A DNA stretch of 51,634 nt, from IMG/VR virus record IMGVR_UViG_2579779024_000005; one strand, 5' to 3'. Positions 27,142 to 27,431 of the stretch are shown here, in pieces. The notes beneath the pieces are model-generated. The model made no database searches. It was given only the letters and a program-made list of their open reading frames with translations, and was not told the DNA's origin. How positions within the stretch are numbered: the stretch's first letter is position 1; each line of letters starts with the position of its first letter. Origin of the DNA: a virus (lineage: Duplodnaviria > Heunggongvirae > Uroviricota > Caudoviricetes). The position numbers and the translations under genes were made by a program.

Positions 27142-27214
27142 AGCCTCCTCCCGGGTCCAGAACGCACTCAGCCGGGTATGGTTCAGCCCATTTTTCCCGG
27201 CGTCTCATGCCGCA

Positions 27215-27340
27215 AATGTTAACTGCTGCCTGGTTAACATTTGCTGAAAAAGCCTGTTAACATTTTTTCCGCACAACAAACTGAATAATAAAGATAAAAA
27301 CCGCAAAAATGCCCGGGCAGCCAGTTAACATGTTAACTGC
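27215..27340. promoter_or_regulatory. Cluster of five GTTAAC-centred repeats between HNH and terS; putative cos / terminase recognition region
   Basis: ATGTTAACTGC occurs twice and GTTAACAT three times within ~125 bp, flanked by G/C-rich runs. Confidence 0.35.
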
Positions 27341-27431
27341 CCTGAAACGGGAATTTTTTCTCTGCGTGAGAGGGGGCGCGGTGTCCAAAGCGATCGTTTT
27401 TTACGCCGGATGATACCCCCCCCGGGTTGGG

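Follow-up and report, generated by a model that had tools for sequence, protein, structure and literature searches.

A probable cos site with five GTTAAC-centred repeats between the HNH endonuclease and small terminase genes of a Pankowvirus-like Escherichia coli prophage

The stretch of DNA analysed here, referred to as the window throughout its 51,634 nucleotides, is a Pankowvirus-like lambdoid prophage of the BP-4795 / 2851 / Stx-phage 1717 type from E. coli. Its late genes lie on the minus strand, and along this strand the lysis genes are followed by an HNH endonuclease gene, a 290-bp spacer, the terminase genes terS and terL, and a prohead protease-capsid fusion. The packaging module consists of the following features:

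27432..27797, minus strand: HNH endonuclease gene, 121 aa (open reading frame with PF01844, E 2.7e-7)
27431..27142, minus strand: HNH-terS spacer, 290 bp (between the open reading frames)
26578..27141, minus strand: terS, 187 aa, Terminase_2 family, SPP1/SF6 G1P-like (PF03592, E 1.3e-8, residues 2-57)
24920..26581, minus strand: terL, 553 aa, HK97-type large terminase with ATPase and nuclease domains (PF03354, PF20441)

The two genes that the first-pass annotation had named on either side of the spacer, HNH and terS, are thus confirmed by their Pfam matches. HNH is the final gene ahead of the putative cos on the late transcript and is likewise annotated as an HNH endonuclease in relatives. TerS starts from a GTG at 27141 behind the Shine-Dalgarno sequence GGAGGAGG (27151..27144), and alignment to relatives and to a fragment of SF6 G1P revealed an N-terminal helix-turn-helix (HTH) with the signature AAIxAGYSxK(T/S)Axx.GS, as in the Terminase_2 family. 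Comparison with the PDB gave weak matches to the SF6 G1P DNA-binding-domain structures 4zc3/2cmp/3zqp (E 0.2-0.8). TerL is identified as an HK97-type large terminase by both Pfam domains and by BLASTP to HK97 gp2 (23% identity over ~490 aa, E 2e-11). The HNH gene immediately ahead of terS and terL, with the packaging site between, is the arrangement of HNH-dependent HK97-like cos modules. On the minus strand of the segment 20284-24856, terL is directly followed by a 645-aa fusion of an S78 prohead protease with an HK97-type capsid protein and then by an 807-aa open reading frame; the portal-first order that is usual for HK97-like head modules is not evident there. Between the lysis genes and HNH, a 66-aa DUF3950 open reading frame (27839-28039, plus strand, Pfam E 3e-19), annotated as a hypothetical protein in relatives, runs opposite to the late operon.

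This packaging region is widespread. A 900-bp segment around the spacer is matched at 94.5-100% identity by 93 phage records, mostly Stx1a/Stx2-converting phages, and the spacer turned up in 1,287 of 5,426 complete E. coli genomes, where a single genome may contain as many as 7 copies. Among the matches listed, all 100%-identical spacers are in strains not named for Stx, one of them O25b:H4-ST131.

The first-pass annotation had placed a probable cos / terminase-binding site between HNH and terS, and published virion ends of a close relative do map inside this interval. Phage Lys8385Vzw (MT225100) has a TerL that is 97.3% identical to that of the window and a nearly identical spacer; after induction and sequencing it was assigned by PhageTerm to the cos class, having 3' cohesive ends with CGCCCCCCCT at the genome end (PMC7946995). 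The Lys8385Vzw record ends with ...GGACACCGCCCCCCCT and begins with CTCACGCAGAGAAAAAATT... / CTCACGCAGAGAAAAAATTCCCGTTTCAGGGCAGTTAACATGTTAAC..., and the minus strand of the window reads ...GGACACCGCGCCCCCT|CTCACGCAGAG..., likewise ...GGACACCGCGCCCCCT|CTCACGCAGAGAAAAAATTCCCGTTTCAGGGCAGTTAACATGTTAAC.... This junction, mapped in the 97%-identical Lys8385Vzw and not in this prophage, by a single software analysis that was briefly reported in a paper with a coordinate typo, aligns to window position 27371|27370, and the overhang is therefore predicted to be CGCGCCCCCT, 27380..27371, with the left virion end starting at 27370 and running towards terS. Among ~94 close phage records, only MT225100 begins at the cut. 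Record starts of Pseudomonas and Burkholderia phages were considered as a further check on the cut and rejected, being arbitrary and lying 21-42 nt before terS, and DNA ends are not discussed in the phi330 paper. The elements around the cut are:

27371..27380, minus strand: predicted 10-nt 3' cohesive end CGCGCCCCCT (by homology to the Lys8385Vzw ends)
27369-27381: G/C-rich run gagggggcgcgg, containing the predicted overhang
27416..27423, minus strand: G8 run (C8 on the plus strand), -46..-53 from the cut
27349..27362, minus strand: A-tract box GAGAAAAAATTCCC, +9..+22 from the cut, part of the conserved cos core

The initial proposal, in which the GTTAAC repeats marked a probable cos / terminase-binding site, accordingly holds for the interval and is refined for the cut, which is predicted in the G-rich run at 27371-27380 and not in the repeats. 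The two G/C-rich runs described there, gagggggcgcgg and C8, also exist, but both are on the HNH side and do not flank the repeats. The G8 run is found at the same 45-nt distance from the cut in a satellite island of E. coli 042, described below, although the DNA between run and cut has diverged there, and a G-run lies at a similar distance in Salmonella, Citrobacter, Burkholderia and Pseudomonas relatives. Because the distance is fixed even in the satellite, the G8 run probably belongs to the cleavage or termination signal, possibly as a cosQ-like or nuclease-positioning element. The IS110-family element ISEc20 is inserted in the G8/C8 run of PPompW prophages from O157 strains (~27419/27420; L213, LC567822.1, 2497-3955). 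Past this insertion, HNH and the lysis genes are absent, and the next features are tRNAs and Q. Packaging is probably defective in these prophages.

In the segment from the cut to terS, GTTAAC occurs at 27218, 27233, 27256, 27324 and 27332. With these, all five repeats that had been claimed between HNH and terS are accounted for, and each of them extends to the 8-mer ATGTTAAC, two on the plus and three on the minus strand. The array spans +34..+155 downstream of the cut, and terS starts at +230:

27322..27339, minus strand: sites 1 and 2, a perfect 18-bp palindrome CAGTTAACATGTTAACTG, +32..+49 from the cut
27264..27321, minus strand: A/T-rich spacer of 58 bp with T-tracts TTTTTGCGGTTTTTATCTTTATTATT, between sites 2 and 3
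27256..27263, minus strand: site 3, ATGTTAAC, invariant in 43 unique long-class sequences
27233..27240, minus strand: site 4, ATGTTAAC, left arm of an inverted repeat (from the sequence)
27216..27223, plus strand: site 5, ATGTTAAC in opposite orientation, right arm of the inverted repeat (from the sequence)

The copies of ATGTTAAC in sites 1 and 2 lie on the plus strand at 27330 and on the minus strand at 27324-27331, while sites 4 and 5 belong to a perfect 12-nt inverted repeat, GCAAATGTTAAC / GTTAACATTTGC, with a 9-nt gap (27212-27244). The longer word ATGTTAACTGC is present twice (27216-27226 and 27330-27340) and GTTAACAT three times, in agreement with the repeat counts first reported. The 58-bp A/T-rich spacer with its T-tracts is possibly bent DNA. 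In the 51.6-kb window, ATGTTAAC occurs 7 times against 1.33 expected, and 5 of the 7 copies fall inside 122 bp; GTTAAC is found 20 times in the whole window, against 8.8 +/- 2.9 in shuffled sequences, and none of 100 shuffles reached 20. Any 8-mer at five copies was obtained in 0.26% of 20,000 dinucleotide shuffles of the 290-bp spacer, a count in which the words themselves were not inspected. GTTAAC is paired at 8-bp spacing once more in TGTTAACTGGTTAACG, at 47204-47217 inside a long open reading frame (47074..47679, minus strand); it was rejected as a further site and is probably a chance match, being inside this reading frame and without the ATG extension. Searches of the spacer found no sense-strand promoter or terminator, and no match to the IHF consensus WATCAANNNNTTR at up to one mismatch within 27142-27431.

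One reading of the motif copies, which we regard as hardly credible, is that they form an antisense sigma-70 promoter, TTAACA-18-TGTTAACAT. A single plus-strand match (27234-27263) agrees with the consensus at 9 of 12 positions and has a TG extension, but it is weak, is built from the repeat and points into the 3' end of HNH, where there is no plausible target. Such a promoter would also leave the five copies, their two orientations and the covariation with TerS type, set out further below, unexplained.

Loci were pulled from IMG/VR by the cut core alone (GGACACCNCNCCCCCTCTCA), and they fell into two discrete classes. All 59 loci with window-homologous (long) spacers have exactly five GTTAAC copies, with none lost, at 0-based offsets of +33, +41, ~+109, ~+132 and ~+147. 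Among 43 unique long-class sequences, compared from the cut to the last repeat, 1 of 38 motif columns varies versus 44 of 117 other columns (Fisher p = 7.7e-6), a footprint drawn in essence from two deep lineages, the phage and the satellite, with shallow variants added, and whose columns are not phylogenetically independent. We read this pattern as purifying selection on the array motif.

The second of these lineages is an island of ~9.5 kb in E. coli 042, located between cspD/yljB and clpS (L087, NZ_CP042934.2 939312-948700), with its cos at positions 1460-1700 of L086. The island encodes an integrase, an HTH regulator, an Icd-like protein, a RepA-type helicase and a ClpP-protease/major-capsid fusion; terS, terL and HNH are not annotated in it and were not found by tblastn. 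Its end carries the G8 run, the cut core and the five ATGTTAAC sites in the same order and orientation as the window, with mismatches at 0 of 38 motif columns against 34 of 117 other columns (29%). The 042-type version, at ≥90% identity, is present in ~69 complete E. coli genomes, and the IMG/VR contig L148 contains a cos copy similar to that of the 042 island. Helper-like cos sites have been described in Gram-negative PICIs (PMC6092414), and a satellite of this kind would keep only those parts that the helper terminase needs.

The conservation of the array also bears on the idea that the inverted repeats act in RNA, as a structured 5' leader of the terS mRNA. The 12-nt inverted repeat and the 18-nt palindrome can indeed pair, and the predicted minimum free energy structure pairs sites 1/2 with site 5. 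The fold energy is ordinary, however (z = -1.54; 17 of 200 shuffles fold as well), the spacer matches no Rfam family, and the satellite has no terS to regulate. Furthermore, the sequence is kept without compensatory changes, including site 3, which has no partner among the inverted repeats. We therefore consider a role as RNA leader highly improbable.

The origin of the array can be traced in relatives with shorter spacers. Salmonella phage FSL SP-016 and prophages of Enterobacter, Citrobacter, Entomohabitans and Phlomobacter have the same HNH-terS-terL module with a spacer of only ~106 bp. They share the G-run and ...GATCGC.CTGGACACCGCGCCCCCT|CTCA..CAGAAAAAAT.CCC, followed by GGAGGGTGT(T/A)AAC(A/G)TGTTAACAG. 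In this short-class element, RTG TTA ACN is the terS start itself (Met-Leu-Thr), at a distance of 40 nt from the cut. In many cases the upstream half-site deviates from the motif (GTAAAC, ATAAAC), and the downstream half-site doubles as coding sequence in the translation-initiation region. This element recurs in the window at an equal distance from the cut, with the palindrome CAGTTAACATGTTAACTG corresponding to the ancestral terS start region and the old ATG at 27331..27329, while terS now starts 190 bp further on with GTG CTG ACA. With site and start codon thus uncoupled in the window, Leu2 is encoded by CTG. This configuration suggests that the E. coli lineage gained a 190-bp segment, which would have parted the element from the start codon and added three copies of ATGTTAAC. 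In Paraburkholderia silviterrae (L013, ~1830-2010) and Neisseria musculi (L081, ~1740-1915), the terS start has independently moved ~100 bp downstream, the same event as in the E. coli lineage, and both keep the GTTAA..TTAAC pair just downstream of the core; L013 has extra GTTAA copies in the inserted segment.

Two further ideas about the segment were discarded. The 24-codon hydrophobic open reading frame MLTGCPGIFAVFIFIIQFVVRKKC (27331..27257, minus strand), which begins at the old ATG, was rejected as a probable non-gene: in the satellite the frame is closed after 4 codons, and the Shine-Dalgarno sequence ahead of the old start has degenerated. A MITE origin of the 190-bp segment was also dismissed, as neither terminal inverted repeats nor a target duplication were seen by eye.

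Most relatives have the terS start codon exactly at the centre of the inverted pair, right after the Shine-Dalgarno sequence, which is a typical autoregulatory position. The repeats could accordingly be an operator for terS or late-operon expression, at which TerS or another protein acts as a transcriptional roadblock or translational repressor. Against this, the array is intact in the satellite, where no terS lies downstream, and the distance to the cut is fixed in three lineages in which the terS start has moved by 100-190 bp. Operator function is therefore an unlikely explanation of the array. Regulation and packaging recognition are not mutually exclusive; an operator is plausible for the short class and may coexist there with recognition for packaging.

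A broader comparison covered TerL homologues with 55-83% identity from 80 other species, of which 73 loci, from prophages of other genera, were classed according to how the product of the gene at the terS position begins. In nearly all upstream regions examined, a similar cos core was recognised by eye: a G-run, ~45 nt, (T)AGACCGC...CC CACGCGCAGA, an A/T tract and CCC. Where TerS is of the HTH type (AAIxAGYSxKTA..GS), GTTAA/TTAAC is found within -60..+15 of the start in 44 of 45 loci and AATCA in 0 of 45, usually in the form TTGTTAATGGCTTTAACA, an inverted pair around the ATG. Where TerS has an Arg/Gly-rich N-terminus, GTTAA/TTAAC is present in only 1 of 24 loci and AATCA(A/G)-type repeats are present in 19 of 24; these counts, like those of motif columns and TTA codons, include related sequences and carry no phylogenetic correction. 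In the 60 nt ahead of the gene that precedes terL, the Arg/Gly-rich loci (MAGVKGKSGGARPGAGRKPK...), for example L017, L018, L021, L034, L055 and L070, have repeats of the AATCA(A/G)(C)AAATG type at the start of terS instead of GTTAA/TTAAC. In a three-protein sample, Arg/Gly-rich TerS had no Pfam match, and the C-terminal part of several of these proteins is homologous to that of the window TerS. The pattern suggests that the AATCA-type repeats are a second TerS recognition motif. Since the motif switches with the TerS N-terminus and the core does not, the core and its A/T-tract box would be tied to TerL/HNH, and the GTTAA motif to the DNA-binding domain of TerS.

Codon usage points in the same direction as far as the level of constraint is concerned. 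The Leu codon that overlaps the motif is TTA in 37 of 43 loci versus 0.94 expected, with a maximum of 7 in 200,000 simulations; TTA makes up 2% of the Leu codons in neighbouring terL, and the hosts mostly have 58-67% GC. TTAAC is retained even when the residues change, as in MAFN (TTT AAC) and MALN (CTT AAC). Four loci with an undisplaced start have CTG or TTG, of which L008, L047 and L057 have an extra upstream TTGTTAAC and L059 has one half-site only. Judged from these codons, the choice of TTA at the motif reflects a constraint at the DNA level.

The covariation further bears on the possibility that TerS recognises only the A-tract box, as in HK97, and that the GTTAAC copies are functionless relics of duplications of the terS 5' end. 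The TerS site of HK97 (+15..+29) includes an A-tract (PMC11331095), the window has a conserved A6 box at +9..+22, and sites 3 and 4 resemble the terS 5' end of relatives, ATGTTAACAGG. Relics should decay, however, and the motif columns are near-invariant in the long class and free of mismatches in the satellite. The A-tract box is kept in both spacer classes, in the satellite and also in more distant prophages with either N-terminal type of TerS, whereas GTTAA/TTAAC switches with the domain; moreover, the HK97 TerS is unrelated in sequence. Recognition of the A-tract box alone is thus quite improbable. Since the box occupies the position at which HK97 TerS binds, it could still be one TerS contact, and it might touch the shared C-terminal part of TerS, or TerL.

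Taken together, we consider it likely that the spacer is a cos, made up of a cleavage core and a downstream array for recognition by the small terminase in the role of lambda cosB. The ATGTTAAC repeats are most likely TerS binding sites, a candidate assignment that we base on strong comparative evidence, namely on purifying selection, on retention in a satellite without terminase genes and on covariation with the TerS domain type. In the mechanism that we propose, a TerS oligomer would bind the ATGTTAAC sites at +34..+155 on concatemeric DNA through its N-terminal Terminase_2 HTH domains. The bound sites would be a palindromic pair, one single site and an inverted pair, parted by the A/T-rich, probably bent spacer, and the bend would let the two paired sites contact one TerS oligomer. 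Bound TerS would then position TerL and HNH on the core (G8 run ...45 nt... GGACAC|CGCGCCCCCT|CTCACGCAGAGAAAAAATTCCC), where staggered nicks would produce the 10-nt 3' overhang. Packaging would proceed from 27370 in the direction of decreasing window coordinates, through terS and terL to the head and tail genes. The ancestral recognition element would have been a single inverted pair, GTTAA..TTAAC, on both sides of the terS start codon and ~40 nt away from the cut.

A more general scheme can be drawn from these comparisons, which we propose tentatively and with slightly less than even confidence. It envisages a modular TerS recognition code in a large clade of HNH-dependent cos prophages of Proteobacteria, in which the core would pair with TerL/HNH, GTTAA..TTAAC with the HTH type and AATCA(A/G) repeats with the Arg/Gly-rich type of TerS. 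In the lineage of the E. coli Stx phages, element and start codon would have become uncoupled and the element would have been amplified to five sites, and a satellite with a capsid gene would have copied the array, competing for the helper terminase.

The 10-nt cos sequence of the near-identical phage Lys8385Vzw is already published, and the array is a further example of terminase-binding repeats beside a cos cut, a principle that is textbook knowledge for lambda and not new. Among the matches listed, no paper in the searchable literature was found to describe the ATGTTAAC array or the GTTAA..TTAAC element. The more interesting by-products are the covariation between motif and TerS domain, which offers a cheap route to the prediction of terminase specificity, and the satellite that copies the array. 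The packaging module belongs to long-tailed Stx1/Stx2-converting phages, and the cut together with the likely TerS sites defines the minimal DNA that would make a plasmid or island transducible by them. The cos layout also explains how a satellite island could be mobilised by Pankowvirus-type phages, and it provides a sequence test for the packaging competence of prophages, as exemplified by PPompW with an insertion sequence in the cos region.

The lambda cos combines cosN with cosB, in which the R3-I1-R2-R1 sites are bound by gpNu1. The window resembles lambda cosB in having short repeats in both orientations between the nick site and terS, with putatively bendable DNA between them and binding predicted, and the left virion end would start just upstream of the repeats. 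In contrast to the 12-nt 5' overhang of lambda, the overhang predicted for this prophage is of 10 nt and 3', as deduced from the near-identical phage. The window TerS belongs to Terminase_2 and not to the gpNu1 family, there is an HNH partner, the motif is ATGTTAAC, and no IHF consensus lies between the repeats, where lambda has I1. Because TerS family and overhang differ and an IHF site is absent, the site would work in the manner of lambda cosB without belonging to the lambda cos family.

In HK97 (TerS gp1, TerL gp2, HNH gp74), the order HNH, cos, terS, terL is the same as in the window, and so is the type of end predicted for the window by homology. Cleavage with HK97 gp74 has been assayed in vitro. 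HK97 has a 10-nt 3' overhang and a single 15-bp TerS site at +15..+29 (PMC11331095). This TerS site, to which the A-tract box of the window is similar in position, is found some tens of bp downstream of the HK97 cut. The terS start is 40-50 nt from the cut both in HK97 and in the short-class relatives. Different from HK97, the window has a TerS that is unrelated in sequence, five 8-bp sites over +34..+155 and a terS start 229 nt from the cut.

The pac system of SPP1/SF6 shares the TerS family with the window, including the N-terminal HTH DNA-binding domain. The boxes bound by SPP1 G1P are repeated and flank the cleavage site, which lies at the 5' end of the G1P gene. SPP1 packages by a headful mechanism, whereas phages of the window type have defined cohesive ends and an HNH partner, and the box sequences are unrelated.

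Finally, the 042 island is similar to SaPIbov5 and EcCICFT073 in being small and integrative, with int, regulators, a replication protein, a capsid homologue and a helper-type cos (PMC6092414, PMC5052747). EcCICFT073 copies the cosN of lambda/phi80 and has a different cosB, whereas the 042 island copies the whole five-site array of the Pankowvirus type.
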